Shown here piece after piece: positions 2,328 through 60,145 of a stretch of DNA of 64,000 nucleotides. This DNA comes from a virus. Taxonomy: Duplodnaviria; Caudoviricetes. Each line of letters opens with the position of its first letter. Within the stretch, counting starts at the first letter, position 1. The position numbers were made by a program, and so were the translations under genes. Under the pieces are notes generated by a model, which saw only the letters and a program-made list of their open reading frames with translations, searched no databases and had not been told where the DNA came from. The DNA lies in IMG/VR virus record IMGVR_UViG_3300037448_000016, positions 1 through 64,000 of that record; one strand, 5' to 3'.

Positions 2328-2357
2328 TTGACAACTAGTTGACCACGAGAGTAGGAT
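2328..2357 (+). promoter_or_regulatory. promoter TTGACA-N18-TAGGAT
   Basis: Direct reading; 11-bp-spaced TGAC repeat. Confidence 0.8.
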
Positions 2358-2359
2358 TC

Positions 2360-2542
2360 ATGGTGACGGACGACGAGATAGACCGCCTGAGGGAGGCATT
2401 CATGCAGGAAATGTCCGAGACTCACTGCGGGAACACCTGGTACGGCCCGAACGCGAAGGTGGCGCTGGCCGACCACATGGCAATGAACCATCTGCGCGGT
2501 CACGACGAGACACCGCCGCCGAAAATACCGGAGCGTAAGTGA
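2360..2542 (+). CDS. small hypothetical protein
   Basis: Directly after the promoter; GTGA overlap with the next gene. Confidence 0.6.
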   Translation: MVTDDEIDRLREAFMQEMSETHCGNTWYGPNAKVALADHMAMNHLRGHDETPPPKIPERK

Positions 2543-4161
2543 GCCTGACCAAGTTGGAGCCCGAGCAGCGGGCGGTGGTGATCGACCGCGCTCGTGATGG
2601 GCGTGGCCGGATCCACTGCGCCGCCTGCCGTCGGGTGGTCCACAAGGGCGGGTTCGAGATCGACCACATCGTGCCCGAGATCGAGTCCACCCCTGAAATG
2701 CGCTCCGACCTGCGCAACCTCCAGATTCTCTGCAAATTGAAGGACGGTAATGGCTGCCACGCCCGCAAGACACGCAAGGAGGCCAAGCGCTACGCGCGCC
2801 TCAACCGGCCGTCACGTAACTGGGCCCTCATCCGCTGGAGCGCCTTCGGTGCGCTGGCCACGGGTGCGTACGGCGTTCAGGGGCTGGGCGAACTGCCTGA
2901 ATACGTCACCGGCGAGCGGATCGCCTACGGCCTGGGCGGAGTTCTGGCAGGCTACTTCTGCACCAAAATAGTCCAGAATGCTTTCGGGACCGCGCGCCCC
3001 CTGGAAAACAATCGGCCCGCCCCGGTTCCAGAACCTGAGATCGTCCCGGTCGAGCGGATCGAGGCCAGCGTCCGCGAACTGGTCGGCGCGAAAGGGTCCG
3101 TCAAGGTCATCGACGTCACCGACCGGCCCCGGGCTTTCACGCTCACCTACGCCGGGACCGGCTTCCCGGCGCGCGACACCGACAAGCGGCTCGACCTGGT
3201 GCTTCAGGTCAGCACGGCGATCGGCGGCCGGTGGGAAGCCGACTGGGACACCACCAGGGACCGTGTGCGCCTCACAGAGCGCCCCGTTCAGCCTCCCCTG
3301 ATCCACCACCCCGGGCTGGCTCCCGAGCGCCCCTGGTACCTGCTGCCGGTCGCTCCGGGGGTGTCTTTCAACCTGCTGGACACCAGCCACATCCTGATCG
3401 CGGGCGAGACGAACTCCGGCAAGACCGCGATGCTGCGCTCGATCATCGTGGCCGCGCTCGACTCGGCCCGCCGCGACGACAGCGTGCGGGTGATCCTGGT
3501 CGACCCCAAGCAGATCGAATTCCTCGGCTTCCGGGGCTGGGCGGGAGTCCACCGGATCGTGCGCAAGCCAGCCGACCTGTGGGACATCGCCTTCGCCGTG
3601 GAGAAGGAGATGAAGCGCCGGTTCGATGCGCTGGCCGACGACCAGGTGCCGCTGTCGAGCCACCCCAAATGGATCGTGATCTTCGACGAGTTCGAACAGT
3701 ACAAGATCCAGGTGGAGCGGTACTGGCTGACCGAGCAGGGCGACGACGGCAAGCCGCTGAAGAAGACCGGCCAGCGGATGTGCCCCCCACTGGTCGCCAT
3801 CGCCTCGGTGCTGGCCATGGCCCGCCGCGCCGGGATCCATCTGGTGATCAGCACGCAGAGCCCCGACGCGGACGTGTTCGGCAAGTCCGCGATCCGCCAG
3901 AACATGCCCGGCCGCGCCACGGTCGGCGCCATCGACGAGTTCCGCGCCCGGATGATGTTCAACGACTCCTCGGTGGGGCGTGACGTGCCGAGCAAGTCGA
4001 AAGGGCTGGCCACCTTCCAGATCGGGGACGGAAAGCCCACCGAAAGCCAGACGTTTTGGTTGAGCGACCCCGCCGATGCCGATCCGAACTACACCAACAC
4101 CCAGGAAGACTGGGCCAACCTGGTCCGCCTAGGAATGCCGAAAGAGTTGATGCCCGTATGA
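2539..4161 (+). CDS. HNH-domain / transmembrane / FtsK-SpoIIIE-family ATPase fusion
   Basis: N-terminal CAAC...EIDHIVP...NLQILC...CHARK (HNH); two TM helices; Walker A GETNSGKT, ILVDPKQIEF, Walker B VIFDE, ARRAGIHLVISTQ (FtsK). Confidence 0.85.
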   Translation: MSLTKLEPEQRAVVIDRARDGRGRIHCAACRRVVHKGGFEIDHIVPEIESTPEMRSDLRNLQILCKLKDGNGCHARKTRKEAKRYARLNRPSRNWALIRWSAFGALATGAYGVQGLGELPEYVTGERIAYGLGGVLAGYFCTKIVQNAFGTARPLENNRPAPVPEPEIVPVERIEASVRELVGAKGSVKVIDVTDRPRAFTLTYAGTGFPARDTDKRLDLVLQVSTAIGGRWEADWDTTRDRVRLTERPVQPPLIHHPGLAPERPWYLLPVAPGVSFNLLDTSHILIAGETNSGKTAMLRSIIVAALDSARRDDSVRVILVDPKQIEFLGFRGWAGVHRIVRKPADLWDIAFAVEKEMKRRFDALADDQVPLSSHPKWIVIFDEFEQYKIQVERYWLTEQGDDGKPLKKTGQRMCPPLVAIASVLAMARRAGIHLVISTQSPDADVFGKSAIRQNMPGRATVGAIDEFRARMMFNDSSVGRDVPSKSKGLATFQIGDGKPTESQTFWLSDPADADPNYTNTQEDWANLVRLGMPKELMPV

Positions 4162-5147: not shown

Positions 5148-5338
5148 TCCGGAAAGGTGTAAGGGTCCGTCTGGTCGGCGACGTCTGGCTTCCCGAATGG
5201 AGTGGCCTGCCCGGCACGGTGATCAGCGACCGCTTCAACGGCTATTTCACGGTACAGGTCGACAACCCGCCCGCCAGCGCAATTTTCGGCGGCGAGGTCA
5301 TCGTCCACCAGGACGACCAGGTCGAGGAGATCGCGTGA
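5144..5338 (+). CDS. small SH3/KOW-like beta protein (paralog 2)
   Basis: RKGVRVRLVG..W.GL.GTV, similar to the upstream gene; perfect GGAGGTGATC RBS. Confidence 0.7.
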   Translation: MIRKGVRVRLVGDVWLPEWSGLPGTVISDRFNGYFTVQVDNPPASAIFGGEVIVHQDDQVEEIA

Positions 5339-5784
5339 TCATCATCCCGGACGCCGCCGAAGCGCGGCTGACCTGCGACCACCAGGCGATGACCGTCCAC
5401 GTCAAGGACGTCAACACCGAAACGGTGTCGGACGGCTTCCACACGTTCGGAGAACTGTACGACCAGCGGGCGCACCTGCTCGCGCTGGCGACCGCCCTCA
5501 GCCAGATGACCACGTACCGGTCCAGGCGACACGATGACGGCACGATGTTCGGCGGAATGTTCTGGGTCGGCACCGAGTCACCCGGTCGCGACGACGGGCC
5601 CCGGCCGGTCACCTTCCACATCGGTCAGAAGCACTGGGCCCTGTTCGATCACGCCGTCACCCTGGACAAGGCCCCGCCGTTCGACGGCCACACCCCGGCC
5701 GACGTCATGCACTCCATCGACGAGTGGATCGCGTGGCTGGCCACCTGGAACATGACCCGCCGGGACGGGAAGGAGATCCAGTGA
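5335..5784 (+). CDS. conserved phage protein (SDGxHTFxELY...FDGHT motif)
   Basis: Motif recognised in translation; coupled start and stop. Confidence 0.7.
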   Translation: MIIIPDAAEARLTCDHQAMTVHVKDVNTETVSDGFHTFGELYDQRAHLLALATALSQMTTYRSRRHDDGTMFGGMFWVGTESPGRDDGPRPVTFHIGQKHWALFDHAVTLDKAPPFDGHTPADVMHSIDEWIAWLATWNMTRRDGKEIQ

Positions 5785-6302
5785 CCCTGCTGATCACGCT
5801 GGGCCTGCCCGGCTCCGGAAAGTCGACCGAGGCTCGCACGTGGCAGGCCAACGGCCGCCTCGGCGAGCCGATGCGGGTCTACCTGGACCGCGACAACCTG
5901 CGCGAAATGCTCTGGAACGAAACGGGTCTGCTCACGCAGCAGAAGGAGATGGCCGTCACCGTCGCTCAGCATTCCATGCTCCGCCAGTTCCTGGTCAACG
6001 GGTACGACGTGGTCATTGCCGACACCAACCTGCGCATCGACCGGCATCTCGTCCTGGTGGACATCGCTCACGGGCTGGGGCATTCCGTGCAGTACGCCGA
6101 CCTGCGCCACGTCCCGGTAGAGACGTGCATCGAGCGGGACGAGCAGCGCCGTAAAGGCGGCGGCCGGTACGTCGGCCCCGACGTCATCCGTGACATGGCG
6201 AAGCGTTACGGCCTGCCGGTACCGGAAGGCTACGGCATCTCACCGAGCGCCCTGATCAGCACCTTCGGAGTGTTCAACTCCACGGACGGGAAGGACTTCT
6301 GA
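5781..6302 (+). CDS. polynucleotide kinase-like P-loop kinase (AAA_33)
   Basis: GLPGSGKST, DRDNLR, VIADTN, CIERD..R motifs as in the T4 PNK kinase domain. Confidence 0.85.
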   Translation: MTLLITLGLPGSGKSTEARTWQANGRLGEPMRVYLDRDNLREMLWNETGLLTQQKEMAVTVAQHSMLRQFLVNGYDVVIADTNLRIDRHLVLVDIAHGLGHSVQYADLRHVPVETCIERDEQRRKGGGRYVGPDVIRDMAKRYGLPVPEGYGISPSALISTFGVFNSTDGKDF

Positions 6303-7662: not shown

Positions 7663-7926
7663 CTACTGGAGCCCTTGCAGATACTTGAAGACTGCCGGGT
7701 GGACCACCAGCACCCGGCCGGTCACCGCCGAGATGACGATCCGGTACCGGAGCACCTCATACGGCTGATCGAACGGCGTGGCCGCCTTCACGAAGTCCAG
7801 TTGGGGGACCTGTTGCTGCGGGATGTCCATGAAGATGGCATTGCTACGGATCATGATCGACTCACCGTCACGCACCCCCGGCTCAAGGATCGTCGCGGAA
7901 ATCGTCTGGGGCTTCAGAGCGGTCAT
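7663..7926 (-). CDS. hypothetical protein
   Basis: TGATG coupling, RBS AAGGAG. Confidence 0.65.
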   Translation of the reverse strand: MTALKPQTISATILEPGVRDGESIMIRSNAIFMDIPQQQVPQLDFVKAATPFDQPYEVLRYRIVISAVTGRVLVVHPAVFKYLQGLQ

Positions 7927-8750
7927 CAGTTCTCCTTACGGATTGACAGCCCGATGGCGGGCGGGAACGCTACGGCGAGCGCCTGAGTGAGGTCCGGCGC
8001 CATGCCCAGGTCGCCGTCCGAGGCCAGCACGATAGCCATGTGCTTGACGTGGCCGATCATCTCGCGCCGCAGCGCCCCGGCGCCGGGGGCTTCCCGGATG
8101 ATCTCGACGCGCCGGATCCGTTCTATCGGCAGCATGGTGGGCTTGTTCCGCTGACGGGCGTCCGGCGTGAGGCTCACCATGCTGCCGATGGTCTCCGTGA
8201 TCCGCGCCGTGGTGCTGGACAGTTCATCCTCAGGCTTCCGGACCCCCCGGTAGAAGATCTTGACGTAGTTGCCGGGGAACAGGGCGTACGGCGCTTCGGG
8301 TTCCTCCACGGCGGCGGCGACCTTGCTGAAAATGAGCCGGGCCTCCTGCACTTCCTTGACGCCGATGGCCCGCAGCGTCAGCCGCCAGGCTCGGGCCGTC
8401 GGCTGTGCCCCCCGTAGGCTGATGATCAGGTACGGCAGCGACAAGTCCCGGGCGGCTGAGATGTCGTCGTTGGACATCCGCGCCACGGTCGTCGGGTGGC
8501 TGTGGAACGTGGCCACCACGTCGAGCCCCGGCTTCTCCCGGTCGAGCGTGGTGTAGAACCTCAGAATCTCTTCGTCGTCCATCTTGTAGTGACCCACCGG
8601 ATCGGGGTGGACGTTCATCATCGGCACGACTTCCGTTCCGAGTCCTTCTGCCCCGACGATGAAACCGCAGGCTTCGCGCGGTTTGCTGTTCTGGCAGAAG
8701 GCGATCGCCTGACGCATCGCGTCGGCGGTCAGGTACAGCGGCTCGTTCAC
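7926..8750 (-). CDS. JAB/MPN+ metalloprotease with C-terminal extension
   Basis: REACG ... FHSHPTTVARMSNDD = E...HxH-x7-S-x2-D JAMM motif. Confidence 0.85.
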   Translation of the reverse strand: MNEPLYLTADAMRQAIAFCQNSKPREACGFIVGAEGLGTEVVPMMNVHPDPVGHYKMDDEEILRFYTTLDREKPGLDVVATFHSHPTTVARMSNDDISAARDLSLPYLIISLRGAQPTARAWRLTLRAIGVKEVQEARLIFSKVAAAVEEPEAPYALFPGNYVKIFYRGVRKPEDELSSTTARITETIGSMVSLTPDARQRNKPTMLPIERIRRVEIIREAPGAGALRREMIGHVKHMAIVLASDGDLGMAPDLTQALAVAFPPAIGLSIRKEN

Positions 8751-9244
8751 AGTTGGCCTCCCAGTTGATACCCGTAGAACAGAATTAGGAGAGCCCCCGC
8801 ACCCTGCATCAATCTGATATATACCGTTTCACCTCGCTCCCCCGTAACCATCCATCCCAGCGACACTTTCCGGTCGCTGAGCGGGTAGAAGAACCCCACA
8901 CCTTGCACGGTCAGCAGGTCGCACACCACGTGCGCCAGCCAGCCGGTGGACACCGCGAGCCCAGTGGTCGGCAGGATGAAAAATCCCACCAGCCAGCCGA
9001 ACCCGACGACAGCGAAGATCGAATGCATCCCCATCCGGTGGCCCCCCGCGAGGCGCCGGATCAGCCACGGGAATCGCCCGAGGTTTCGCCCCGCCGTGGA
9101 GGACGAGTGGTCCAGGTCTGGCAGATGCGATGCGATCATGGCGATCGGGAACCCCACCACCACGGCTTTCCAGTCGGGCAGAAGGAAGGGGACCGTCCCC
9201 AGCCATGCGACCTGACTGGTGACGATCCCCGCCTTCGCGTTCAC
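8747..9244 (-). CDS. membrane metal-dependent hydrolase (YbcI/YdjM-like)
   Basis: LPDLDH, HRMGMHS, AHVVCDLLT..GV motifs and TM helices. Confidence 0.8.
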   Translation of the reverse strand: MNAKAGIVTSQVAWLGTVPFLLPDWKAVVVGFPIAMIASHLPDLDHSSSTAGRNLGRFPWLIRRLAGGHRMGMHSIFAVVGFGWLVGFFILPTTGLAVSTGWLAHVVCDLLTVQGVGFFYPLSDRKVSLGWMVTGERGETVYIRLMQGAGALLILFYGYQLGGQL

Positions 9245-20517: not shown

Positions 20518-21561
20518 ATGACTACCACTCGCACCGAGAACCAGATCGACCACATCGCGCTCGTGGTCGATGCCTCCGGCTCCATGAGTCACCTGGCCCG
20601 CGACGTGATCAAGGTCGTGGACAACCAGATCGCCTACCTCGCCAGCCGTTCCAAGGATCTGGACCGCGAGGTGCGGGTCAGCGTCTACACCTTCGACGAC
20701 ACGGTGAAGTGCGTGATCTTCGACAAGGACGTGCTGCGGATGCCGTCTATCCGCGACCTCTACCGGATCGGCGGCATGACCGCGCTGATCGAGGCCACGA
20801 TGAAGTCGCAGGAAGACCTGGCTACCACCAGCACGATCTACGGTGATCACGCCTTCCTCACCTACGTCATCACGGACGGCGCCGAAAATGCCAGCCGTCA
20901 TCGTCACGCCAGCCAGATGCGCTCCATGCTGGCCGGTCTCGCCGACAACTCGACGCTGGCCACGCTCGTGCCGGACCACCAGGCTGTCGATCGGGCCGTC
21001 CGGCTGGGTTTCCCGGCGGACAACATCGAGGTCTGGGACGCTTCATCCACGGCGGGGCTGGTGCGGGCTGGAAGCCGGATCCAGCAGGCGACCGACACCT
21101 GGATGGACAACCGCAGCAAGGGAATCCGCTCCACGAAGACCCTGTTCTCCACCGGCCCAGAGGTACTGAACAAGGCCACCGTGACCGCCGCACTGACCCC
21201 GCTGCCGATGGACAAGTACTCGCTGATCCCGGTCATGCCGGACGGCGTCCAGAAAGGCGACAAGGTCCGGGTCGACAAGTTCATCCGGGAAGACTGCGGC
21301 ATGACCTTCAGGCTCGGCACGGTGTACTACGAGTGGAGCAAGAAGGAGACGGTGCAGCCGCAGAAGCGCCTGGCCGTCGTCCAGAAGTCCACGGGCAAGG
21401 TGTTCGTCGGCACCGGCGACGAGGTCCGGCAAATGATCGGCCTGCCGTCCCTGAACACCCGCGAGGCTCCCAAGGCGAACCCGGACTTCACCGTGTTCGT
21501 CCAGTCGACCGCCCCGAACCGCAACCTGGTTCCGTTCACCAAGGTTCTGGTGATGCTCTGA
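20518..21561 (+). CDS. von Willebrand factor A domain protein
   Basis: VVDASGSM (MIDAS DxSxS), GGMTAL, ITDGAENAS. Confidence 0.85.
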   Translation: MTTTRTENQIDHIALVVDASGSMSHLARDVIKVVDNQIAYLASRSKDLDREVRVSVYTFDDTVKCVIFDKDVLRMPSIRDLYRIGGMTALIEATMKSQEDLATTSTIYGDHAFLTYVITDGAENASRHRHASQMRSMLAGLADNSTLATLVPDHQAVDRAVRLGFPADNIEVWDASSTAGLVRAGSRIQQATDTWMDNRSKGIRSTKTLFSTGPEVLNKATVTAALTPLPMDKYSLIPVMPDGVQKGDKVRVDKFIREDCGMTFRLGTVYYEWSKKETVQPQKRLAVVQKSTGKVFVGTGDEVRQMIGLPSLNTREAPKANPDFTVFVQSTAPNRNLVPFTKVLVML

Positions 21562-22724: not shown

Positions 22725-23678
22725 CTAGTGCTTCACTGAGACGTGGACGTGGTTGACGTGGTCGAGCGTGTCGCTGTGCCCACCGGAAGGGTGGGCGTAA
22801 GGGCGCCATTGCCCGGTCTCGCTGGTGAAGATCCGCTTGTTGAAGATGACGTAGTGCCCACCGACCTGGGCCAGGTTCGCGGCCCAGTAGTCCGCTATCT
22901 CCTGTCCGAGGTCGTGCTTGTCGGCGGATCGGTAGTCGCTGCCCAGCATGATGTCCACGGCGTTTCCGGTCGCGTGGTCGGACAGCGTGCCGGTGCCAGC
23001 GATCGTGCGGTAGGCGTACCCACCGATCGAGGAGATGCACGGCGGCGGGTTCGTGGCGCAGCCCCAGTCTTTCAGCGTCAGGGCTTTGATGTTCTCCGCG
23101 CGGGGGCGTAAGCCGTCGCCCCCTTGCGGTCCACTCCCCGGATCGGACAGCGCTCCGTCCGCCACGGCGTTGCAGTCCAGACCGAGCCCGTCGACCGCCT
23201 CCTGAGCCGCCCCGATGAACTGCCGGTACGATCCTGACCAGAACGTGACCCAGGGAGAGAAACCATGCGCATCGGTCCATATCTGGAAGGCCACCGAGGC
23301 ATTGAAGGCTGGATCGTGCCAGTCGCCGTGCGCCAGAAGGGCCGCGTGTACCGAGTTGATCTGCCACAGGCCGTAATCCGTGGACCCGTTGGTGTTCAGA
23401 TTCGTGATATTTGCGTTCCATCCGGACTCCGCGTGCGCAATGGCCACAGCAGTGACCAGGTTGTCTCCGCGAAATCCAGCGGCCAGCGCGGCTTTCGCTA
23501 CGGCAGCACCATCGCTGGCCGCGTGCCCCGTGATGGAGCACGCCTGGCTGGCCGGACCGCCGCCGAGAGCCAGCGATGGAACCGGCGGAGCGCCGCCGCC
23601 CGGCAGGCCCGTGAACAGGACCGCCAGGACGGCAAGGGCCGCCGCACCGGCCAGCGCTAGGCGCTTCAATCCGCCCAC
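22725..23678 (-). CDS. conjugation-associated cell-wall hydrolase: lytic transglycosylase plus C-terminal M15-like Zn peptidase domain
   Basis: Signal/TM; AIAHAESGWN..DYGLWQIN (SLT catalytic Glu); SDHATGNAVD...HVNHVHVS. Confidence 0.85.
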   Translation of the reverse strand: MGGLKRLALAGAAALAVLAVLFTGLPGGGAPPVPSLALGGGPASQACSITGHAASDGAAVAKAALAAGFRGDNLVTAVAIAHAESGWNANITNLNTNGSTDYGLWQINSVHAALLAHGDWHDPAFNASVAFQIWTDAHGFSPWVTFWSGSYRQFIGAAQEAVDGLGLDCNAVADGALSDPGSGPQGGDGLRPRAENIKALTLKDWGCATNPPPCISSIGGYAYRTIAGTGTLSDHATGNAVDIMLGSDYRSADKHDLGQEIADYWAANLAQVGGHYVIFNKRIFTSETGQWRPYAHPSGGHSDTLDHVNHVHVSVKH

Positions 23679-24142
23679 GTCAGGCCGGTGCAGAGCCAGT
23701 CGCCGGAGACGACGTCCATCGTGACGAGCAGCGCGCCCCGGTTGGTGGGTACGCTGATCTCCTGCTCGGTCGGGCCGTCTTTCGACACGGTGGCCGAGCC
23801 GGTGATCACGGCATCCTTGGGCGCCTCGTTCGTCGTCAGGTCTTCCAGCACCGGCGGGGAGTACAGGTCGTCGTTCATCACGCCCCGGAACCAGCCGTCA
23901 ACGGCGCTGATGGCGTCAGGGACGGCCGATCCGTGGGCGGGCCAGGTGAACGGGTCGGTGCCGGACGGCGATGGCGTCTGCGGGGTGTAGACGGGCGGCC
24001 GGGGCCCGGCCGTCGTGGTCGGGCTCGCTTCGGTCTTCGGGCCGGGCAGGTGGCTGACCGACCGGGCGATGTTGAACCCGGCCAGCACAGCGATCACGGT
24101 GAGCAGGGCGGCGATGGTGATTCTCTGGCGGTTGTTGTTCAT
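23666..24142 (-). CDS. single-TM protein, VirB8/TcpC-like candidate
   Basis: N-terminal TM, Pro-rich linker, small alpha/beta domain; position in the operon. Confidence 0.5.
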   Translation of the reverse strand: MNNNRQRITIAALLTVIAVLAGFNIARSVSHLPGPKTEASPTTTAGPRPPVYTPQTPSPSGTDPFTWPAHGSAVPDAISAVDGWFRGVMNDDLYSPPVLEDLTTNEAPKDAVITGSATVSKDGPTEQEISVPTNRGALLVTMDVVSGDWLCTGLTWAD

Positions 24143-26016
24143 GGCGTGCCTTCCGGGTCGCTGGTGCTGGTGTCGAACATCTGACGGTGCCTGTTCTGCG
24201 CGGCTTTACGCGCTTCCTCCCGGTCCTGCTCGGCGGCCATCCGGGCGTATTCCTCACGGACCACGTCCAGCGGCCGGGTGTAGAACTCGGTCTGCGTGTT
24301 GGCCGGTGGCGGTACCGGGTCCGGAACGAACTCCTCACCGGCCTGGGACGGCCGGTACAGCACCGCGCCGGGCGCCTCCGAGCCCTCGTCGTCGCTGGGC
24401 TCGGAGGCGGGTGCGGCCTGAGCCGAGGTGAGGTAAGACGTGACGTGGGCGTGGGCGTCACGGACCCGCTCCATCCGCTCCTCGTGCTCCTCCTCGCTCT
24501 CCCGCGCCCCGGCGGCGGCGCCCTTGCTGACGGCCCAGGCCATGGCGCCGATGCCGGTGACCTTGCCGACCACGTGCCGGACCAGCCTGCCGTGCCCGCG
24601 TATGCGACCGGCGCTCATCAGCGCGAGCGCTTTCCGGTCGGGCCGCAGCGCCGTCCAGAAAATGAAGACACCCAGGCCCATCAGCAGGAAAGACACCCAC
24701 GTCGGCCAGCCCGGCTGCATCACGGCCTCGGTGTAGACGGTATAGAGCCAGGTCCCGATCGCTGCGGTCACCACGATGCCGAGCGCCTGCGACGTGGTGT
24801 CGAGCAGCCCCTTGCCCGTCCGGTGCCCCTGCGGAGTGACCAGCCACGGCGAGGCGAGCAGCCAGACGATCCCGAGGATGGCCAGCAGCAGGATGCACAT
24901 GATCATCAGGAGGTTGGCGAAGATCCGGAAGAACGCCACCGTCAGCGCGAACGCCATCTCGTACAGCGCCGGGCCCGACCCGGCGGCCTGCTCACCGGTC
25001 AGCCACCGGTACGCCGCCGGGTCGGAATCTTTCACCTCACCAGCGATCTTCTTAAACGCATCCGACTTCTCTTTCAGCAGCGCCTGGCGATCCTTGATCC
25101 GTTCCTCGCGATCGGCCTTGTCCTTGGCGAGCGCCGGGTCGGTGGCCTGGGCTTGGGCCCAGGTGATCCGGGTGGCGGCCAGCAGCGCCGGGCCGTACGT
25201 GCGGGCGGTGTCAGACTCGTCGGTGCCGAACGTCCGCCGCAGCCAGCCGTCGTAGTGGATGGCCTCCATCGCCCGGTCGGTCGCGGCCTGGGCCGGGGAG
25301 GCGCCTTCGTACAGCGACGAGGTCACCGCACCGACTCCGGCCTGCGTGCTGGTCGCCACCTTCGTCGGGGCCATGATGACGAAACCACCGATCAGCAGGA
25401 CGATCATGACCCAGGTGATCTGGCTCATCACACCCGCCGTGTCGCCGCGCTTGGCGCGCCGGAACAGCATGACGGTGCAGAACAGCAGCCCCAGACCCAG
25501 GAACGGCAGCAGGATCCGCTTGGAGATCACCGTGATGGCCTTGTTCGCCAGCGTGCCGAGCAGTTTCGTCACCCAGGACGGATCGAACGCGAACCGGCTG
25601 GTGGCGTCCGCCGCCGCCGTGGAGGCTTGCCCGATGCCGACCAGTTTCCTGGCCAGCGACTCGTCACCCCAGGCGTTCAGGTGCTTGCCCCAGTTCGTCA
25701 CGTTGATCGAGCAGCCCAGGTCGTAGGTGAACGGCGACATTCCGGAGAAGCCGCTGGTCTCGTACAGGTGCGCGGGGTCGACCGGCTTCTCCCCGACGTC
25801 CGGCGGGTCACTGGGCCGGTCGGCGAACAGGCCGGGCACGCCGACGCTGGGCAACTGCGGTACGGGCGCGGACGGCTGGCAGACCCCCGGCAGGGCCTTC
25901 TCCACGGCGAGGGGCTCCGCCGCCTGGGCCCGGGAGCCGAGCGCGATGCTGAGCAGTACCGCGAGCAGCAGCACGCCGGAAGCGATCCGGCCGATGGTGG
26001 ACTTCAGGATCCTCAT
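24139..26016 (-). CDS. polytopic membrane protein, VirB6/TrbL/TcpH-like
   Basis: Signal peptide, multiple TM helices in two clusters, soluble tail; ATGA-coupled to VirB4. Confidence 0.75.
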   Translation of the reverse strand: MRILKSTIGRIASGVLLLAVLLSIALGSRAQAAEPLAVEKALPGVCQPSAPVPQLPSVGVPGLFADRPSDPPDVGEKPVDPAHLYETSGFSGMSPFTYDLGCSINVTNWGKHLNAWGDESLARKLVGIGQASTAAADATSRFAFDPSWVTKLLGTLANKAITVISKRILLPFLGLGLLFCTVMLFRRAKRGDTAGVMSQITWVMIVLLIGGFVIMAPTKVATSTQAGVGAVTSSLYEGASPAQAATDRAMEAIHYDGWLRRTFGTDESDTARTYGPALLAATRITWAQAQATDPALAKDKADREERIKDRQALLKEKSDAFKKIAGEVKDSDPAAYRWLTGEQAAGSGPALYEMAFALTVAFFRIFANLLMIMCILLLAILGIVWLLASPWLVTPQGHRTGKGLLDTTSQALGIVVTAAIGTWLYTVYTEAVMQPGWPTWVSFLLMGLGVFIFWTALRPDRKALALMSAGRIRGHGRLVRHVVGKVTGIGAMAWAVSKGAAAGARESEEEHEERMERVRDAHAHVTSYLTSAQAAPASEPSDDEGSEAPGAVLYRPSQAGEEFVPDPVPPPANTQTEFYTRPLDVVREEYARMAAEQDREEARKAAQNRHRQMFDTSTSDPEGTP

Positions 26017-28601
26017 ACCAGTTCCCCTTCGCGGTAGGCCCATCCTTCGGCACCGGCCGGGGTGGGGTTGGTCAGGACGACGTTACGCAGCGCCTGGTGA
26101 TAGTCGACGTCGACTTTCAGGCCGCCGACTCGCCCGTCCGCGTCCAGGTGGACGAACTCGCCGGGGCGTCGGGTCGAAAGTTCCATCAGCACACGGGCAT
26201 ACGACTTGTCCTCGATGTGGAGGATCGACAGCATCGCCTCGGCTGGTTCCGGGTTGGCCATCCGGCCGACGAACGCACCGGCCAGGAAGTTGCGCAGTTC
26301 GCCACCCATCATCTCGTCGGTGACGTTTTTCAGCCCGAGGTACACCGCGATGTTCCACTTGGAGTGGTCACGGCCCAGACGGTTCAGTTGCCCGCGCCCC
26401 GTTCCAGTGTCGAGCAGGTCCTCGGCTTCGTCGAAAATGCCGATGGCCCGTTCGTGGCGCGGCTTGCTGAACAGCAGCCGGTCCGTGTAGAGCGACGTCA
26501 AAAGGAGGATCGGGTCGGCGGCGTGCTCCGTCGCCGTCCAGTCGACCCGGTCCGAGGAGTCCGGCGCCCGGCGGATCCCGGGGGTCGAGATCACGGTCAG
26601 ACCGGAGTATGACGCCGGAGAAAAGTCGTCGGTCGACTTCTCCGGGGGGAACAGCAGGCGGAACAGCGGCATGTCGGCAGCGTCCCGCAGCGCGGCCGAG
26701 ACCTGGTCGGCGTGCTCGTCGCCCAGGGTCTCCAGCCCGTTGATCAGGTCCCACATCGTCGCGTACTGCGTCCAGCGGGTCAGGCCAGCCGCCCGGCGCA
26801 GCGCCCCGAAGGTGGCGGGGTGCCCGTACAGGTCGGGGGTCAGGCACCGCCGGGCCACATCGATCGTCAGGGCCCGGCGCTGGGCCAGCGCCTCGTCCTC
26901 CGACGTCGCCGAATCCGAGTCGTAGCGGATCAGGCTCGGCGGGTTCAAGATGCCGCGCTCGCCTTCGAGCAGGTTCAGCGAGCGGCTGATCCCCCGCAGT
27001 TCCGGCATCTGGCACAAGGCCATCATCGGGCCGGACGGGTCACGGGCGACCACCCGGCCACCGCGCCGGGCGCCGTGGTAGGCGATCGACTCCAGCAGCA
27101 CCGACTTGCCGCCGCCGAGGGTGGACACGACCGCCCACATGTTCTGCGAGCGGCCCAGTTCTCCCCGGCCTTCGGTGGCGTACCACGGGTCGTGCATGAC
27201 CGGGCGCCGGGCGGCCCCAAGCGTGAAGCCGATGTACGGGCCCCGGCCGTCCCCGATGGCGCTGGACACGTTCGGCATCCCGGCGGCCAGGTAGGACAGC
27301 CGGACCTGACGCTGGTAGCCGCTGGTGTCGTAGGACTCGCCGGGGACCGTTTCCCGCAGTCGCATCGCCTGGCCGTGCGCGGCGGTGAAATCCATCCGCA
27401 TCGCGCCGGAGCCGTACAGCCGCCGGAAGGCGTCGGCCCGCTCCTCACAGGACTGCTCGGCCGACTTGACCACCCGCCCGTCCCGCTCGCGCGTCTCCTC
27501 ACCGACGATGATCGCGTTGATCGTCCCGACGAACCGGGCCGCGTACCGGGGCTGGCCGGTGGTGACCTGGTCGCGGATCTCCTTGGCCAGCGAGATACCC
27601 CGCTCGGTGTACTCGGGCGGCAGTTCGTCGAACAGCCGGTAGGTGTCGTTGATGTTGATGGCCTTGTTCAGGTCGAGGGTGGCCTGCTTCGCCAGTTCCT
27701 CGCCGGAGCGGATCCGGCCCTGCAACGACCACTCCACGGCGATGGGGGAGCCGTCCGAGTCGACCAGACGCTCGGCGAACGCCTGCCACGGCTCCAGCCC
27801 GTTCTCCGGGTAGTGCAGGTCGGCCAGCCGCGCGGCGGTCAGCACCTGCACGTGCCGGGTCTGCTGCACGCCGTCACGCCATGCCGTGACCTCGACCGTG
27901 CGGTCGAAGCGTGACTCGGCCCACCGCACGTCGTTGGACAACTCGGGAAGGTCACGCACGTCCCAGCCGGTCTCGGCTGCACGCATGGGGGCGGGCATTC
28001 CGGGGGCCAGCGAGCGCTCGTGGATCCAGCCCTGCTCGCGCTCGGTCATGCGTACGGCACGCCACCCGGTCACGGCGTCATGCACACGCTTCTCCTCCGC
28101 CAGAAGCGTGCCGACCTCCGCCGACACGGGCGTGCCCGTGCGTGCGTGCGTGAGGATCTCGCCCCGCACGTCACGGCCGGGCTCCACCGTGCCGACCGTG
28201 AACCAGCGGAAGACGATCTTGTCTTCCATGCCGGACGCCCCGATCCGCCGCTGCATCCGCACCAGGTAGTCGTCCCAGGTCTCCCCGTCCACATCCGGTA
28301 CGGGAGCCGGGGTGCGCCGGTCCAGGTCGGCGGCCCAGGCCGCAACGGGGTGCGGGCGGTTCGTGACGCGCTCCCTGAAGTCCCGGCCCGCCAGTTCGGC
28401 CCAGACGTCGGCCGACGCCTCAATGAGCCCGCTACGGGCCTCCAGAGGCATGAAGTCCCAGCGGGACGCCCCGATCCGGTACCCGGCCCAGACCCGGCCG
28501 TCGCTGGCCACCACCAGATTGGAGACGATCTGCCGGACACCCGGGGCGATCTGAGCGTGCATCGGAGCCGAAAGGTCGGCTTTCGCCTTACGCCAGATCA
28601 T
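26013..28601 (-). CDS. virB4: VirB4-like conjugation ATPase (ConE/TcpF type)
   Basis: About 860 aa; Walker A STLGGGKS, VVARDPSG, LNLLEG..GILNP, Walker B GIFDEAE, GEFVHLDADGRVG. Confidence 0.8.
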   Translation of the reverse strand: MIWRKAKADLSAPMHAQIAPGVRQIVSNLVVASDGRVWAGYRIGASRWDFMPLEARSGLIEASADVWAELAGRDFRERVTNRPHPVAAWAADLDRRTPAPVPDVDGETWDDYLVRMQRRIGASGMEDKIVFRWFTVGTVEPGRDVRGEILTHARTGTPVSAEVGTLLAEEKRVHDAVTGWRAVRMTEREQGWIHERSLAPGMPAPMRAAETGWDVRDLPELSNDVRWAESRFDRTVEVTAWRDGVQQTRHVQVLTAARLADLHYPENGLEPWQAFAERLVDSDGSPIAVEWSLQGRIRSGEELAKQATLDLNKAININDTYRLFDELPPEYTERGISLAKEIRDQVTTGQPRYAARFVGTINAIIVGEETRERDGRVVKSAEQSCEERADAFRRLYGSGAMRMDFTAAHGQAMRLRETVPGESYDTSGYQRQVRLSYLAAGMPNVSSAIGDGRGPYIGFTLGAARRPVMHDPWYATEGRGELGRSQNMWAVVSTLGGGKSVLLESIAYHGARRGGRVVARDPSGPMMALCQMPELRGISRSLNLLEGERGILNPPSLIRYDSDSATSEDEALAQRRALTIDVARRCLTPDLYGHPATFGALRRAAGLTRWTQYATMWDLINGLETLGDEHADQVSAALRDAADMPLFRLLFPPEKSTDDFSPASYSGLTVISTPGIRRAPDSSDRVDWTATEHAADPILLLTSLYTDRLLFSKPRHERAIGIFDEAEDLLDTGTGRGQLNRLGRDHSKWNIAVYLGLKNVTDEMMGGELRNFLAGAFVGRMANPEPAEAMLSILHIEDKSYARVLMELSTRRPGEFVHLDADGRVGGLKVDVDYHQALRNVVLTNPTPAGAEGWAYREGELV

Positions 28602-29577
28602 CGATCTCCCCCTGCCGGACAGCGGCCTCTTCGGCAACGGACACCATGGCTTCGTACGCCTGACCGAACTCCGAGCGCTGCACGCAGAACACGCTCCCGG
28701 TCTCGGTGTTGAACACGACGACCGTGCCGTCTTCGAGCGGCACGCCGTTGGCCGTGACCGCTGCACGCACGAGCACCTCCGTGCCCGTGCCGTCCGCGTG
28801 CAGCACGCGCTTCATCTGCACGCGCGTGACCTGCACGCTGGCCCCCCGGTCACGCAACCACACCAGCACGTGCTGGCCGAGGCGCTCGTCGCGTGCAGTG
28901 GAGTCGAACAGCATCGCCTCCACCACGGGCCTGCGTTCCCTGTACTTGATCACCATGATGTCCTCCGGGTCGTAGTCGTTCAGGCTGGCCATGAAGTCGA
29001 GCAGGACCTGGTCGGCCTGCTCCGTGTCGAGAACGAGGGGAAGGACCTCCACGGCGAGGGGGGTCCGCAGCGGGGCGACACCGCGCCACTGCTCCGGCAG
29101 CGTGCGCAGCCAGAAGGTCACCGGCCGGTTCCCGTCGATGAACGGGCGGGCCTGGCGCACCAGCAGGAACGCGACCAGCACGGCCAGCGGCCCGGCGGCC
29201 CAGAACGGCGACGGGAAGATCCACTTCGCCGGATTCGGGACGATCACGAGGCCGAACAGCACCGCCACCCCAGCGATGACCACCTGGCCCCGCCTGCGGG
29301 CCGCTGCGGGCCTGGAGAAGGTCAGGCGGGCCAAGTGGTCCAGGGCCATCCCGTTGGCCGCCCAGCGGCCGAACAGGGCCGCGCTGAGGCCGACGATGCC
29401 GCCTACCGGGACCACCAGCCACAGCAGGGCGAACAGCACCGGCACCGACAGCAGGCCGATCGCCCACTCGGTGTACGTCGCGTCGAACGGCCAGCGCCAC
29501 GCACCGGTCGGCCCCAGCCACGGCGAGCGCAGATTGCGCGAGGCGTCCTCGCTGCGCTGGATCACCGCCACAACCAC
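28588..29577 (-). CDS. TcpE/VirB3-like membrane protein fused to a phage-type C-terminal domain
   Basis: N-terminal multi-TM part directly upstream of VirB4; C-terminal KYRERRPVVEA...F..AYE domain with an internal RBS; the start may be 29565. Confidence 0.6.
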   Translation of the reverse strand: MVVAVIQRSEDASRNLRSPWLGPTGAWRWPFDATYTEWAIGLLSVPVLFALLWLVVPVGGIVGLSAALFGRWAANGMALDHLARLTFSRPAAARRRGQVVIAGVAVLFGLVIVPNPAKWIFPSPFWAAGPLAVLVAFLLVRQARPFIDGNRPVTFWLRTLPEQWRGVAPLRTPLAVEVLPLVLDTEQADQVLLDFMASLNDYDPEDIMVIKYRERRPVVEAMLFDSTARDERLGQHVLVWLRDRGASVQVTRVQMKRVLHADGTGTEVLVRAAVTANGVPLEDGTVVVFNTETGSVFCVQRSEFGQAYEAMVSVAEEAAVRQGEIDDLA

Positions 29578-29657
29578 CGATCGAACGCCTCCACCGCGAC
29601 GAGCCCGGCCAGCACGGCACCGGCCAGCACCCCCGCCACGAACAGCACGGGCCTCAC
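29562..29657 (-). CDS. 31-aa single-TM peptide
   Basis: GTGA coupling; VRPVLFVAGVLAGAVLAGLVAV... Confidence 0.5.
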   Translation of the reverse strand: MRPVLFVAGVLAGAVLAGLVAVEAFDRWLWR

Positions 29658-30052
29658 TCCGGCTGCCCGTCGCGCGACGGCTCCGGGCCGAACCCGGCCG
29701 ACGTGAGCACCTGCTGGAAGGCGTCGAGCGCTGAACCGCTCGTGAGCGGCCGGTTGAGCGCTGGCGCCCCGATCCGGGCGAATCGGATCTCCAGGTTCAT
29801 GAGCCCGTGGCTGACGAGGTGGTCGACCTCCACGTTGGACAGCGTCCACACCGTGGCGATCGGCTCGGCGAAGAAATGCGCCTTCAGCGCGTCCGCGATC
29901 CCGTCCGGCAGGACGCTGGCCGGGACACGCCTGGGGAGGGACGGCCGGTCTCGTTCCGGGCCGCCCTCGCTGAACGTCAGGGTGACGTCGTCGATGTAGT
30001 TGCCTTCCACCTCCCGGCGGAAGTGGCTGAGGTGGTACTTCAGGTCGCTCAC
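29654..30052 (-). CDS. hypothetical protein
   Basis: GTGA coupling. Confidence 0.65.
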   Translation of the reverse strand: MSDLKYHLSHFRREVEGNYIDDVTLTFSEGGPERDRPSLPRRVPASVLPDGIADALKAHFFAEPIATVWTLSNVEVDHLVSHGLMNLEIRFARIGAPALNRPLTSGSALDAFQQVLTSAGFGPEPSRDGQPE

Positions 30053-30348
30053 TTGCTCAGGAAGGGGACGGACCAGCCGAGGAACGCGGCGGCGAAGGCC
30101 AGGCCGGTACCGGCGATCCCGATCGCGCCGGGGATGAGCGCGAGCAGGGTGGCGCCGACGATGTCGAAGATCTTGCGGGTGTTGCCCTTGCGGGCGTGCC
30201 CGGCGAGCGCTGCGAGCGTGATCCAGATCAGAACGAGGCTGATCCCGAGCAGCAGCAGCGCGCGGGCCTTGTTCAGAGTGCTGTTCGGCGTGAAATCGCC
30301 GGTGGCGGCCAACTCGGTGGCGGCCTGGAGAGCCTGCACGTGGGTCAT
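30049..30348 (-). CDS. small two-TM protein, VirB2/pilin-like
   Basis: 99 aa, two hydrophobic helices linked by ARKGN; first gene of the operon, RBS GAGAGGGG. Confidence 0.6.
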   Translation of the reverse strand: MTHVQALQAATELAATGDFTPNSTLNKARALLLLGISLVLIWITLAALAGHARKGNTRKIFDIVGATLLALIPGAIGIAGTGLAFAAAFLGWSVPFLSK

Positions 30349-30377: not shown

Positions 30378-30408
30378 AACATAACACGTGTAGTCAGGCC
30401 GTTGTCAA
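30378..30408 (-). promoter_or_regulatory. promoter of the conjugation cluster, TTGACA-N19-TATGTT
   Basis: TTGACAACGGCCTGACT shares the phage-wide 11-bp TGAC repeat. Confidence 0.65.
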
Positions 30409-30703: not shown

Positions 30704-31069
30704 TTACCGGGTTGCGGTGTGCCCGAGCACCCGAACGCCGTAGTGGTCAGCCACGTTGGCCACGGTGCCGACCTGGATGGCGCCGACGAACGCGATCAGG
30801 ATGGCCGCCCGCTCCGCAGGGGAGATCACGCCGTCCGTCCAGGCGTCCACTACGGCCAGCACGACCGCCGTGAAGATGGCGATGGCCTCCTTGGCGTTGG
30901 GCTGGGTGACGGTGTTGGCCTTGAAGTACACCGCCAGCGCGCCCAGGAACGTCACCACGGCGCCGATGACCACCGGCCGGGTAAAGTCCCCGGCGATGAG
31001 CGCGGCGGCCCCAGTGGAGCCCAGGACGGCGATGAGCGCGTACTGAATTGCTTTCGCTGCGTAATCCAT
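30704..31069 (-). CDS. holin
   Basis: 121 aa, four TM helices, immediately after the endolysin. Confidence 0.75.
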   Translation of the reverse strand: MDYAAKAIQYALIAVLGSTGAAALIAGDFTRPVVIGAVVTFLGALAVYFKANTVTQPNAKEAIAIFTAVVLAVVDAWTDGVISPAERAAILIAFVGAIQVGTVANVADHYGVRVLGHTATR

Positions 31070-59230: not shown

Positions 59231-59271
59231 AGTCTTCCACGCTTGACTGGACGCTGTCAAGGTTTTGTCAA
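59231..59271 (-). promoter_or_regulatory. tandem TTGACA x2 (11 bp apart); promoter TTGACA-N18-AAGACT
   Basis: Direct reading. Confidence 0.55.
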
Positions 59272-59774
59272 TTGCCAATGCGGTCTCGCTTGTCCAGGTT
59301 GCAGCCCAAATGAGCCAGTTGGACATTGGCCAGCACGTGCTTGCCACCGCGCGAAATCGGGAACCGGTGATCGAGGCTTTTGCTCGCTCGATCCGGATAC
59401 TCCAGCGTCATATCCACCAGTCCGCCGCAGAGACGGCACGTCCAGCCGTCGCGGCGGGCGACCTCCGTCAGCAGGATGCGCTCACCGGAGTCCATCTGTG
59501 CTCGGCGCCGGTGGTAGGCATCGCGGCGCCGGTCATTCCAGCCACCAGCCGATTCGTACTCGGCCGCGTAGTCCCGAGGCGGACGTGACTCTTTCAGGTG
59601 GGTGTTGCAGAGACCTTTCGCGCGATGCGGCCGGTTGCAGGATTTCCGCGAGCAACGGCGGGGGTTCGCTCGCTCCTGGCATTGCTTGCAGCAGTACAGC
59701 CTGGGGCGGCCAGATCCGGTACGGAATGGGAGCAAATTGGCGCATGGAAAGGCTTGACAGGTCGTTGTCGTCAC
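59268..59774 (-). CDS. HNH endonuclease (packaging-associated type)
   Basis: RDGWTCRLCGG...SLDHRFPISRGG.H...NVQLAHLGCN. Confidence 0.85.
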   Translation of the reverse strand: MTTTTCQAFPCANLLPFRTGSGRPRLYCCKQCQERANPRRCSRKSCNRPHRAKGLCNTHLKESRPPRDYAAEYESAGGWNDRRRDAYHRRRAQMDSGERILLTEVARRDGWTCRLCGGLVDMTLEYPDRASKSLDHRFPISRGGKHVLANVQLAHLGCNLDKRDRIGN

Positions 59775-60145
59775 GGCTTCAGCCTACCAGTTCACGCTCC
59801 CCCGTGCGACGCCCCGACAATCAACTGACAACTGACTATTTGAACCAACTTGTGGAAAAAGTGCTCTCCCCCTTAGGTCCAGGCGCGCGAGGCGGGGAGG
59901 GGGCGCCCCCCAGGGTGGGGCCCGAGCCGAGCCGGAGCCGCAGCCCCGAGGCGCCCTGTGGTCAGCCGCTTGACAAGCCGTGGTCAGCCGTGAGAGGGTG
60001 GCCCCATGCCGCAGTGAGGGGCACCCGGAAGGGGCTCGCACAGCAGCAGCAGCACCCCCGCTGCACCCCTGCACCGCACGGAGCCTCGCTCCCTCTGCAC
60101 AGCACGGGTCCGGAGGGGCAGGCACCACAGCACGGCAAGGCAGGC

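Follow-up and report, generated by a model that had tools for sequence, protein, structure and literature searches.

The 64,000-nucleotide stretch analyzed here, hereafter the window, is the first 64 kb of IMG/VR record IMGVR_UViG_3300037448_000016, a 77,934-bp virus genome that is rated 100% complete and whose assembly is closed by an exact 127-bp terminal repeat. At 2539–4161 on the forward strand, it encodes a 540-amino-acid (aa) protein, P0001, in which an HNH nuclease domain, a two-helix hydrophobic hairpin, and an FtsK/SpoIIIE-type motor are joined in a single chain. With moderate confidence, we propose that P0001 serves the phage's own type IV secretion system (T4SS), a VirB4-type (monoderm, Tcp-like) machine, as its coupling and DNA-translocating ATPase, because its homologues hold a TcpA- or VirD4-like position in conjugation loci, because it is the sole FtsK- or VirD4-like candidate in the 77.9-kb genome, and because its predicted fold is of the TcpA/FtsK type.

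Domain architecture of P0001

The gene was recognized from Pfam and PHROG matches and from a structural model, and it begins at a GTG codon. This start overlaps the TGA stop (GTGA) of a small upstream open reading frame (ORF) of about 60 aa, which runs from an ATG at 2360 (2360–2542, forward strand) and has no Pfam match; the overlap makes translational coupling of the two likely. The GC content at third codon positions of the HNH-FtsK gene (0.88) is typical for the genes of this genome.

The HNH nuclease domain occupies residues 1–90 (2539–2808, forward strand) and, according to Pfam, the alignment, and the model, includes H43, N60, and H74 together with the zinc ligands C27, C30, C65, and C73. 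Pfam HNH matches residues 27–78 (23.9 bits against a cut-off of 21.4), several HNH PHROGs match residues 18–96, and the model contains the beta-beta-alpha-metal scaffold, with strands at 39–43 and 61–65 and a helix at 73–88. The domain is of the phage [CxxC]2 type, the subtype shared by phage cos-type HNH endonucleases (GVE2 HNHE, PDB 5h0m; HK97 gp74 type). Aligned with the nicking enzyme GVE2 HNHE, the DH, N-LQ-LC, and CH-RKT motifs are in register, and H43, N60, and H74 of P0001 fall on H93, N109, and H118, each of which reduces nicking when mutated (PMC5304195). Characterized phage proteins of the [CxxC]2 type nick DNA (PMC5304195), and the cos-type enzymes do so together with a DNA-pumping ATPase (PMC5304195; PMC3592412). 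Cos-type HNH proteins are free-standing, soluble, and encoded beside terminase genes, whereas the HNH domain of P0001 is covalently joined to the hairpin and the motor. A second, free-standing HNH-like ORF with C..C, DH, and N motifs lies at 59271–59783 (reverse strand), upstream of the packaging genes as in cos-type phages, so the fused HNH domain of P0001 is not the packaging HNH.

The FtsK-type motor spans residues ~171–520 (3049–4098, forward strand) and consists of an alpha-like subdomain and a RecA-like ATPase without a gamma domain, as delimited by Foldseek, PDB profiles, and the predicted local distance difference test (pLDDT). Pfam FtsK_SpoIIIE (PF01580) matches residues 282–370 (50.3 bits against a cut-off of 24, E 2.7e-13), and PHROG 1358, 'FtsK/SpoIIIE-like', matches residues 276–510. 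The Walker A motif GETNSGKT lies at residues 289–296 (nucleotides 3403–3426) and the Walker B residues are D383 and E384 (nucleotides 3685–3690). NCBIfam returned sub-threshold matches only, to FtsK, EccC, TraB, and TraD, and there was no Pfam match in P0001 to FtsK_gamma, to FtsK_4TM, or to relaxase families. The AlphaFold2 model, built from 22 relatives, has a mean pLDDT of 85, and most of the motor lies at 86–97; it comprises a beta-beta-alpha unit, two long helices, a disordered proline-rich linker (~150–170), and an alpha+beta motor (171–530). P0001 ends about 20 residues beyond the motor.

Between these domains, a K/R-rich stretch precedes the hydrophobic hairpin (residues ~95–148; 2821–2982, forward strand), which was defined from the AlphaFold2 model and hydropathy. 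Its helices, at residues 95–117 and 125–148, are modeled at pLDDT 59–72. The 17-residue Kyte-Doolittle maxima are 1.0 and 1.2 in P0001 and 0.65–2.7 in relatives, where the second helix is usually the stronger, and with a 19-residue window and a threshold of 1.2 the hairpin of P0001 falls below the call. The hairpin sequence varies among the 22 relatives, yet it is hydrophobic in all of them, and the modeled hairpin is a probable membrane anchor. By the positive-inside rule, the K/R run before helix 1 would leave the HNH domain and the ATPase both in the cytoplasm.

A word-indexed search recovered 23 close relatives at 43–72% identity, 22 of them 539–562 aa long and one of 891 aa. Invariant in 22 relatives at 43–73% identity are the HNH residues C27, C30, D42, H43, N60, C65, C73, and H74, the Walker A residues G289, T291, G294, K295, and T296, Walker B D383 and E384, and a T439/P442/D443/A444 block in which Q440 and S441 are nearly so. 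The 891-aa relative (P0009) carries an intein of about 335 aa, with Hom_end/LAGLIDADG Pfam matches, that splits the GKT of Walker A after the K. The P-loop is a classic intein site in ATPases that must stay functional.

An earlier note, made from the letters of this DNA and a list of its ORFs, had described ORF 2539–4161 as bearing HNH motifs and an intact FtsK ATPase, and the Pfam and PHROG matches and the invariant residues bear this out. It had also allowed that the HNH catalytic residues might be non-functional; they are intact and invariant in the 22 relatives. Its claim of two transmembrane (TM) helices stands in part: two helices are modeled, but with their moderate hydropathy their TM nature is only probable.

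A VirB4-type secretion operon and the relatives of the motor

The likely partner machine of P0001 is encoded by a VirB4-type secretion operon at 22725–30348 on the reverse strand, recognized from Pfam, TM counts, and plasmid matches. It encodes a 99-aa two-TM protein (30049–30348), a 329-aa membrane protein (28588–29577), a 917-aa VirB4/AAA_10 ATPase (26013–28766; Pfam AAA_10, E 2e-14), a 634-aa polytopic protein (24139–26043), a 158-aa protein (23666–24142), and an SLT_3 lysozyme-like hydrolase (22725–23678; Pfam SLT_3, E 9e-20), and it includes two further small ORFs of 132 and 95 aa, all on the reverse strand. A conjugation module on a Streptomyces plasmid contains matches to the VirB4 and the polytopic protein (E 1e-84 and 8e-24, respectively); the 329-, 132-, 95-, and 158-aa proteins belong to no Pfam or PHROG family and find no counterpart in the plasmid loci, and none was recognized as TcpC- or VirB8-like. 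The operon lies downstream of the lysis genes and has its own promoter-like motif (see below). A 121-aa protein at 30704–31069 was considered as a pilin on the strength of a DUF4134 match, and this reading was dropped: the match is below the cut-off and the gene adjoins the M15 endolysin, so the protein is a probable holin.

A six-frame search of the whole 77.9-kb genome gave no match to the VirD4 families TraG-D_C and T4SS-DNA_transf and none to the relaxase families Rep_trans, Relaxase, TrwC, and Mob_Pre. The earlier note's observation that the secretion cluster in the window lacks a VirD4 and a relaxase thus holds across the full genome for the families tested. P0001 itself has only a sub-threshold P-loop match to models of the VirD4/TraG type (TrwB_AAD_bind, 12 bits against a cut-off of 20.5).

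The nearest homologues without a fused nuclease are FtsK/SpoIIIE proteins of 630–920 aa that lie beside VirB4 operons and match residues ~140–540 at E 1e-26 to 1e-40. The best plasmid matches, down to E 7e-32 by tblastn and 5e-40 by BLASTP, are actinobacterial FtsK/SpoIIIE-domain proteins, and all six plasmid loci that we inspected adjoin a VirB4 module (Streptomyces sp. 891-h, Brevibacterium pAP13, Glutamicibacter pGnpA106, Rhodococcus opacus PD630 plasmid 3, Cutibacterium modestum, and Mycobacterium JS623). The usual order is a conjugal transfer protein, small proteins, VirB4, a polytopic protein, a peptidoglycan hydrolase, a small protein, and the FtsK-like protein; on the Streptomyces and Rhodococcus plasmids, the FtsK-like gene stands beside the module on the opposite strand. 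These homologues (e.g., WP_023164825.1 of Brevibacterium pAP13, WP_243088960.1 of Streptomyces sp. 891-h, and WP_015298200.1 of Mycobacterium sp. JS623 pMYCSM03) carry only generic annotation, and we found no characterization of them. They resemble P0001 in the FtsK-type motor and some, in Streptomyces and Brevibacterium, also in the two-helix N-terminal hairpin; unlike P0001, they showed no HNH motif in a motif scan and have only a short tail before the hairpin, where one is present. They also adjoin the T4SS operon on plasmids, whereas P0001 is encoded by a tailed phage.

Of the plasmids matched by the motor or by the phage VirB4, MOB-suite types most (269 of 385 hits and 110 of 150; ~70%) as 'non-mobilizable', as it does five of the six inspected plasmids, whose FtsK-like proteins show no HNH motif. 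A class of probable conjugation systems may be missed by current plasmid typing.

Phylogeny places the motor near these plasmid proteins. A maximum-likelihood tree (28 rows, LG+C20) recovers the phage family as one clade (SH-aLRT 99) whose sister group is the set of T4SS-linked proteins from plasmids (98); chromosomal FtsK (100), TcpA/TcpB of pCW3, and the TraB of pIJ101 branch elsewhere. The top Foldseek match of the P0001 model is TcpA (6o1x, E 1.5e-17), followed by FtsK motors (6t8o/2ius, E ~1e-14, target-normalized TM-score ~0.6) and then EccC/EssC, and a PDB profile search gave FtsK at 1e-16 and TcpA at 9e-12. By sequence, P0001 belongs to the FtsK/SpoIIIE family and to the HNH superfamily, outside the groups of FtsK proper, TcpA, TraB, and VirD4.

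Each of these groups nevertheless illuminates part of the protein. TcpA of Clostridium perfringens pCW3 (PDB 6o1w–6o1z), whose group also includes the related Tn916/ICEBs1-type coupling proteins, gives the best structural match; its two N-terminal TM helices are the probable counterpart of the hairpin of P0001, and its FtsK-like motor has no gamma domain. Its partners in a monoderm T4SS are a VirB4 (TcpF), a hydrolase (TcpG), and the VirB6-like TcpH (PMC3548315; PMC12857230), and one trait of the TcpA family, a VirB4 module in a genome without a recognized VirD4, is present for P0001. TcpA differs in that it is only ~20–26% identical (BLASTP E 2e-6), falls in a separate clade, has no nuclease domain, and has a dedicated relaxase, TcpM. 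TraB of the Streptomyces plasmids pIJ101, pSVH1, and pSG5 is a membrane-associated FtsK-like hexameric pump that moves double-stranded DNA (dsDNA) between actinobacterial cells with no relaxase (PMC3548315; PMC12857230). It differs in having no VirB4 T4SS and no HNH domain and in using, according to the literature, clt repeats that are read by a C-terminal winged helix; the resemblance of P0001 to it is weak (NCBIfam plasmid_TraB 21.3 bits against a cut-off of 800; BLASTP E 9e-8 to the pIJ101 protein). Chromosomal FtsK/SpoIIIE shares PF01580, the alpha+beta motor fold, and the Walker A/B and arginine motifs with P0001, and differs in its 4-TM N-terminal domain, long linker, and KOPS-reading gamma domain, all of which P0001 lacks; motor identity is 26–29% and the NCBIfam FtsK score is 40 bits against a cut-off of 1566. 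In its way of working, P0001 is probably most like TcpA, as the coupling motor of a monoderm VirB4 system, and TraB, as a relaxase-free dsDNA pump. The comparison with TraB and TcpA drawn in the earlier note is thus apt for the probable mode of action and fails for family membership, since P0001 groups with neither in both trees.

The second of these trees covers the wider family. A HMMER search of 1.84 billion representatives yielded 373 matches at E <= 1e-30, and a tree of 145 rows, taken from the best matches, contains a superclade of three clades that is apart from FtsK, TcpA, and TraB. Clade 1 holds the compact HNH-hairpin-motor proteins, including P0001, and longer HNH forms (P0137, and P0138/P0148, which have an added FtsK gamma domain); clade 2 consists of proteins of 590–830 aa; clade 3 consists of HNH-less proteins and includes all six plasmid references. 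In the clade 2 alignment, most members have a zinc ribbon followed by an HNH-like C..C / DH / C..CH motif, a basic stretch, and a hydrophobic segment; this HNH-like motif was read from the alignment, as a narrow HNH model missed most of the clade. An IMG/VR scan with the clade 2 alignment, which relied on a generic Walker A pattern alone, returned motor-only matches at 22–33% identity and no full-length relative, and is uninformative on that clade.

In four other metagenomic elements (L025, L027, L111, and L112), HNH- or HNH-like-fused homologues lie directly behind VirB4 modules. P0144 (L027), P0147 (L111, a 145-kb NCBI contig), and P0152 (L112, 74 kb) are directly downstream of genes for VirB4, a polytopic protein, a small protein, and a hydrolase, and the VirB4 and polytopic proteins of all three loci are homologous to those of the phage. 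P0137 (L025) follows a truncated 612-aa ORF, a small protein, an SLT/NlpC hydrolase, and a protein with a faint DUF2637 match. The coupling-motor role suggested in the earlier note gains from these arrangements and from the position of the nearest relatives at the end of VirB4 operons.

The same association holds among phages. An IMG/VR scan with P0001 alone found no relatives; a scan with the alignment found two, along with five HNH-only matches, and all three IMG/VR genomes with the HNH-FtsK gene also carry VirB4. At least six distinct lineages of phages have the gene and a VirB4 homologue on one contig (G000, G001, G002, and contigs of 74,575, 54,154, and 42,059 bp). Among 50,697 cultured-phage records, no match covered at least 80% of P0001; the best, at E 1e-14, are FtsK-like genes of SPO1-like Bacillus phages with ~27% identity over the motor. 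The short contigs L026, L028, and L029 and one more carry HNH-FtsK homologues in phage-like arrays with a YdjM gene and are neither support nor counter-example. Among the complete elements and phages examined, none had the gene without a VirB4 module; the earlier note had named the occurrence of the gene in T4SS-free phages as a counter-test beforehand, and no such carrier was identified.

The phage genome and the setting of the gene

The genome belongs to an uncultured soil actinobacterial tailed phage that is siphovirus-like, with a GC content of 66% that is uniform along the sequence. It encodes a large terminase, an SPP1-type portal, a protease, a major capsid protein, and a tape measure, together with a collar-domain fiber, the M15 endolysin, a Prim-Pol/D5 primase, an exonuclease, and endonuclease VII. 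The large terminase is ~55% identical to that of Arthrobacter phages. It is a single 560-aa ORF (53844–55526, reverse strand) whose two halves match separate PHROGs; in its closest cultured relatives (Arthrobacter phages, e.g., Isolde), two genes are annotated, one for the ATPase half and one for the nuclease half, and the match falls in two pieces. Of the sequencing runs listed as containing this sequence, the only one that has it in full is a soil metagenome, possibly the source sample; two further soil runs share a small part of it, and none of the runs is of RNA. A scan of GTDB species representatives offered a weak hint of the host, in that it gave one true relative, on a 13-kb contig of a Mycobacteriales metagenome-assembled genome (L023), and one further, distant, motor-only match. 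No tyrosine or serine recombinase, ParA, or ParB was found in the six-frame search of the whole genome, and with no integrase or partition genes found the phage looks virulent. A ParB_N match at 20875–21069 (reverse strand) was discarded: it scores 12 bits, contains a stop, and is antisense to a conserved gene.

The HNH-FtsK gene is part of an extended rightward run of genes, most of them small, from ~60.5 kb across the record end to ~6.6 kb. A motif, TTGACAAC-N3-YTGAC, occurs in 15 copies in the window at no more than one mismatch (at 524, 1458, 2328, 11658, 16407, 30393, 47208, 57745, 57905, 59256, 60146, 60476, 61478, 62295, and 63406), against 0.08 expected, mostly upstream of gene starts and on the matching strand, and it is probably a promoter or operator class of the phage's own. 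One copy (2328–2343, forward strand) precedes the small ORF and the HNH-FtsK gene, and another (30393–30408, reverse strand) precedes the secretion operon. The uniform GC content, the motif at both loci, and at least five other phage-size contigs with both genes make a chimeric assembly unlikely.

Other early-region genes near the HNH-FtsK gene encode a WDGH-domain protein, an AAA_33/zeta-toxin-like kinase, and a Prok-JAB protein beside a YdjM gene (5197–6302, forward strand; 7926–8750, reverse strand). The YdjM gene itself, for an inner-membrane hydrolase family (8747–9244, reverse strand; E 4e-21), has counterparts close to HNH-FtsK homologues, a few kb away at most, at nine other loci (L002, L003, L023, L026, L028, L029, L111, L112, and one further contig). 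In pCW3, a 'metal-dependent hydrolase' gene directly follows tcpH (L018:36482–36976). YdjM may be an unrecognized accessory of this type of T4SS.

Beyond the window, at genome positions 72668–73531 (reverse strand), a 287-aa protein combines an N-terminal ArdC domain (E 5e-9) with a weak match to M78/IrrE peptidases. Proteins of the ArdC type shield incoming single-stranded DNA (ssDNA) in plasmid conjugation, which makes an ArdC-like protein in a T4SS-bearing phage suggestive.

Alternatives, a possible mechanism, and what it would mean

Several points weigh against the assignment of P0001 as a coupling ATPase that cuts and pumps phage DNA. Its gene is ~20 kb from the secretion operon and on the opposite strand, and the promoter-like motif common to both is weak evidence for specific co-regulation, as about 15 transcription units have it. 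Every close relative is metagenomic, on contigs of up to 75–79 kb, and co-occurrence with VirB4 among related phages, which have a common backbone, is not independent evidence. Membrane insertion of the hairpin is probable only, as judged from moderate hydropathy, and P0001 lacks the ~140–200 additional C-terminal residues of the plasmid homologues. It also has no gamma or winged-helix DNA-recognition domain, so that no means of selecting phage DNA is evident. HNH chemistry is hydrolytic and leaves no covalent 5' adduct; without such a protein-DNA adduct, the HNH domain cannot pilot DNA as a relaxase does. Moreover, the absence of a relaxase seems to be general to the system type and not linked to HNH, because ~70% of the matched plasmids, including HNH-free ones, are typed without one; the system type as a whole may have an unknown relaxase or none. 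Finally, what an apparently virulent phage would gain from conjugation-like transfer is not obvious.

In one alternative, which we regard as unlikely, P0001 is the T4SS coupling ATPase and its substrate is ssDNA from an unrecognized phage relaxase or rolling-circle initiator, with the HNH domain in an accessory role such as trimming, concatemer resolution, ending transfer, or attack on donor or recipient DNA. Linkage to the T4SS favors it equally, standard profiles miss the atypical relaxases (MOBT, MOBM) of TcpA-type systems (PMC3548315; PMC12857230), and an unknown relaxase family is plausible given that most plasmids with motor or VirB4 homologues are likewise without a recognized one. The phage also encodes the ArdC-like protein and many ORFs without a family match. 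Against this, the Rep_trans, Relaxase, TrwC, and Mob_Pre families are absent from the genome, the motor fold is nearest to the FtsK/TcpA type, whose members are proposed dsDNA transporters (PMC12857230), and the strict conservation of HNH by the motor in two large clades suggests that the nuclease has a core role. We think it quite unlikely that P0001 is a membrane-anchored nuclease-translocase independent of the T4SS, acting in superinfection or plasmid exclusion or reeling in and cutting the host chromosome. The closest homologues, with HNH or without, are consistently the last gene of VirB4 conjugation modules, all three IMG/VR genomes with the gene carry VirB4, and neither a close homologue in the cultured-phage records nor any T4SS-free carrier was identified, even though the gene does sit in an early rightward array among small genes of host-takeover type and its membrane-anchored motor, lacking gamma, looks non-specific. 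Conflict systems commonly pair a nuclease with an ATPase of the FtsK-HerA superfamily, a point that counts for such a T4SS-independent role. So does the distant, gamma-bearing P0138, whose gene adjoins one for an Mrr-type restriction nuclease. P0138 and P0148 are HNH-FtsK proteins of 950–975 aa that keep the FtsK gamma domain, and the gene after P0138 encodes an Mrr_cat restriction-type nuclease; this context hints that some members of the wider family act in defense and not in transfer.

The remaining explanations detach the protein, or its nuclease, from secretion. There is a very small chance, in our estimate, that P0001 is a helper in phage DNA metabolism (concatemer resolution, segregation, or packaging) that combines a motor of the kind found in cultured phages with a terminase-type HNH. 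Cultured phages do have FtsK-like genes of unknown role (PMC3706429), and [CxxC]2-type HNH proteins are packaging cofactors (PMC5304195). The cultured-phage proteins (Omega gp203 of Cluster J mycobacteriophages and those of SPO1-like Bacillus phages) are, like P0001, phage-encoded motors, yet they are only 25–30% identical to it over the motor; those of Cluster J have no membrane domain and keep the gamma domain (PMC3706429), and, compared by description, no HNH or T4SS is reported for any of them. The phage, in turn, already has a separate HNH ORF by its packaging genes (59271–59783) and a complete large terminase, and the tree puts P0001 with the T4SS-linked proteins. We give scarcely any credence to the idea that the HNH domain is a selfish homing endonuclease, fused in frame by chance and with no part in ATPase function. 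Actinophages often carry free-standing HNH homing endonucleases, and one relative has an intein; a homing element would be sporadic, however, and here the domain keeps the same position and the same hairpin almost throughout two large clades, which comprise dozens of 50%-identity clusters, with catalytic and zinc residues invariant.

For the coupling role that we prefer, a mechanism can be sketched in which we infer how the protein sits in the membrane, that it docks to the T4SS, what kind of DNA it moves, and what the HNH domain does. A hexamer of the motor would lie against the membrane on its cytoplasmic side, anchored by a ring of two-helix hairpins (twelve helices) and docked to the channel of VirB4 and the polytopic protein. 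It would pump phage DNA towards a neighboring cell, probably as the double strand, as proposed for TraB and TcpA. A dsDNA substrate is plausible by analogy with the FtsK/TcpA-type fold; dsDNA transfer is proposed for TcpA and shown for TraB (PMC12857230; PMC3548315). Six N-terminal HNH domains would lie beside the membrane-proximal mouth of the motor, where a cut or nick would supply it with a free end or would end transfer. That the HNH domain might stand in for a relaxase is plausible, a reading weakened by the lack of a recognized relaxase on most plasmids with homologues of the motor. Motor and nuclease would then be paired as in a terminase and used for export through a membrane channel.

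Carried to its full extent, this proposal becomes tentative, and we consider it doubtful as a whole: an apparently virulent tailed phage would have domesticated a complete monoderm conjugation channel, and its HNH-motor 'export terminase' would cut replicating phage DNA and pump it, as dsDNA and relaxase-free, directly into neighbors, as a second route of spread that is independent of virions and receptors. The protein would then represent a third type of coupling protein beside VirD4 and TcpA, one common to many uncultured actinobacterial elements. A nomenclature review of T4SSs from December 2025 divides the type IV coupling proteins into two families, VirD4 and TcpA, and does not contain the word 'nuclease' (PMC12857230). 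In the open-access literature, of which coverage was incomplete, we found neither a coupling protein fused to a nuclease nor a VirB4-bearing tailed phage described.

What is present in these complete tailed-phage genomes is a coupling-type FtsK motor that is fused to a conserved nuclease, forms its own clade, and is accompanied by the rest of a conjugation channel. To our knowledge, conjugation and phage infection have been treated as separate routes of DNA transfer, and the T4SS coupling proteins described so far all belong to the VirD4 or TcpA family and depend on a separate relaxase. Should the role instead be exclusion or attack on neighbors, it would still be an undescribed phage use of a T4SS. 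If the machine does move phage DNA, the phage would spread without virions or receptors. It would also be a concrete case of relaxase-free transfer by a VirB4 system, bearing on whether FtsK-like coupling proteins move dsDNA, and it would explain the many VirB4-bearing actinobacterial plasmids that are currently typed 'non-mobilizable'.

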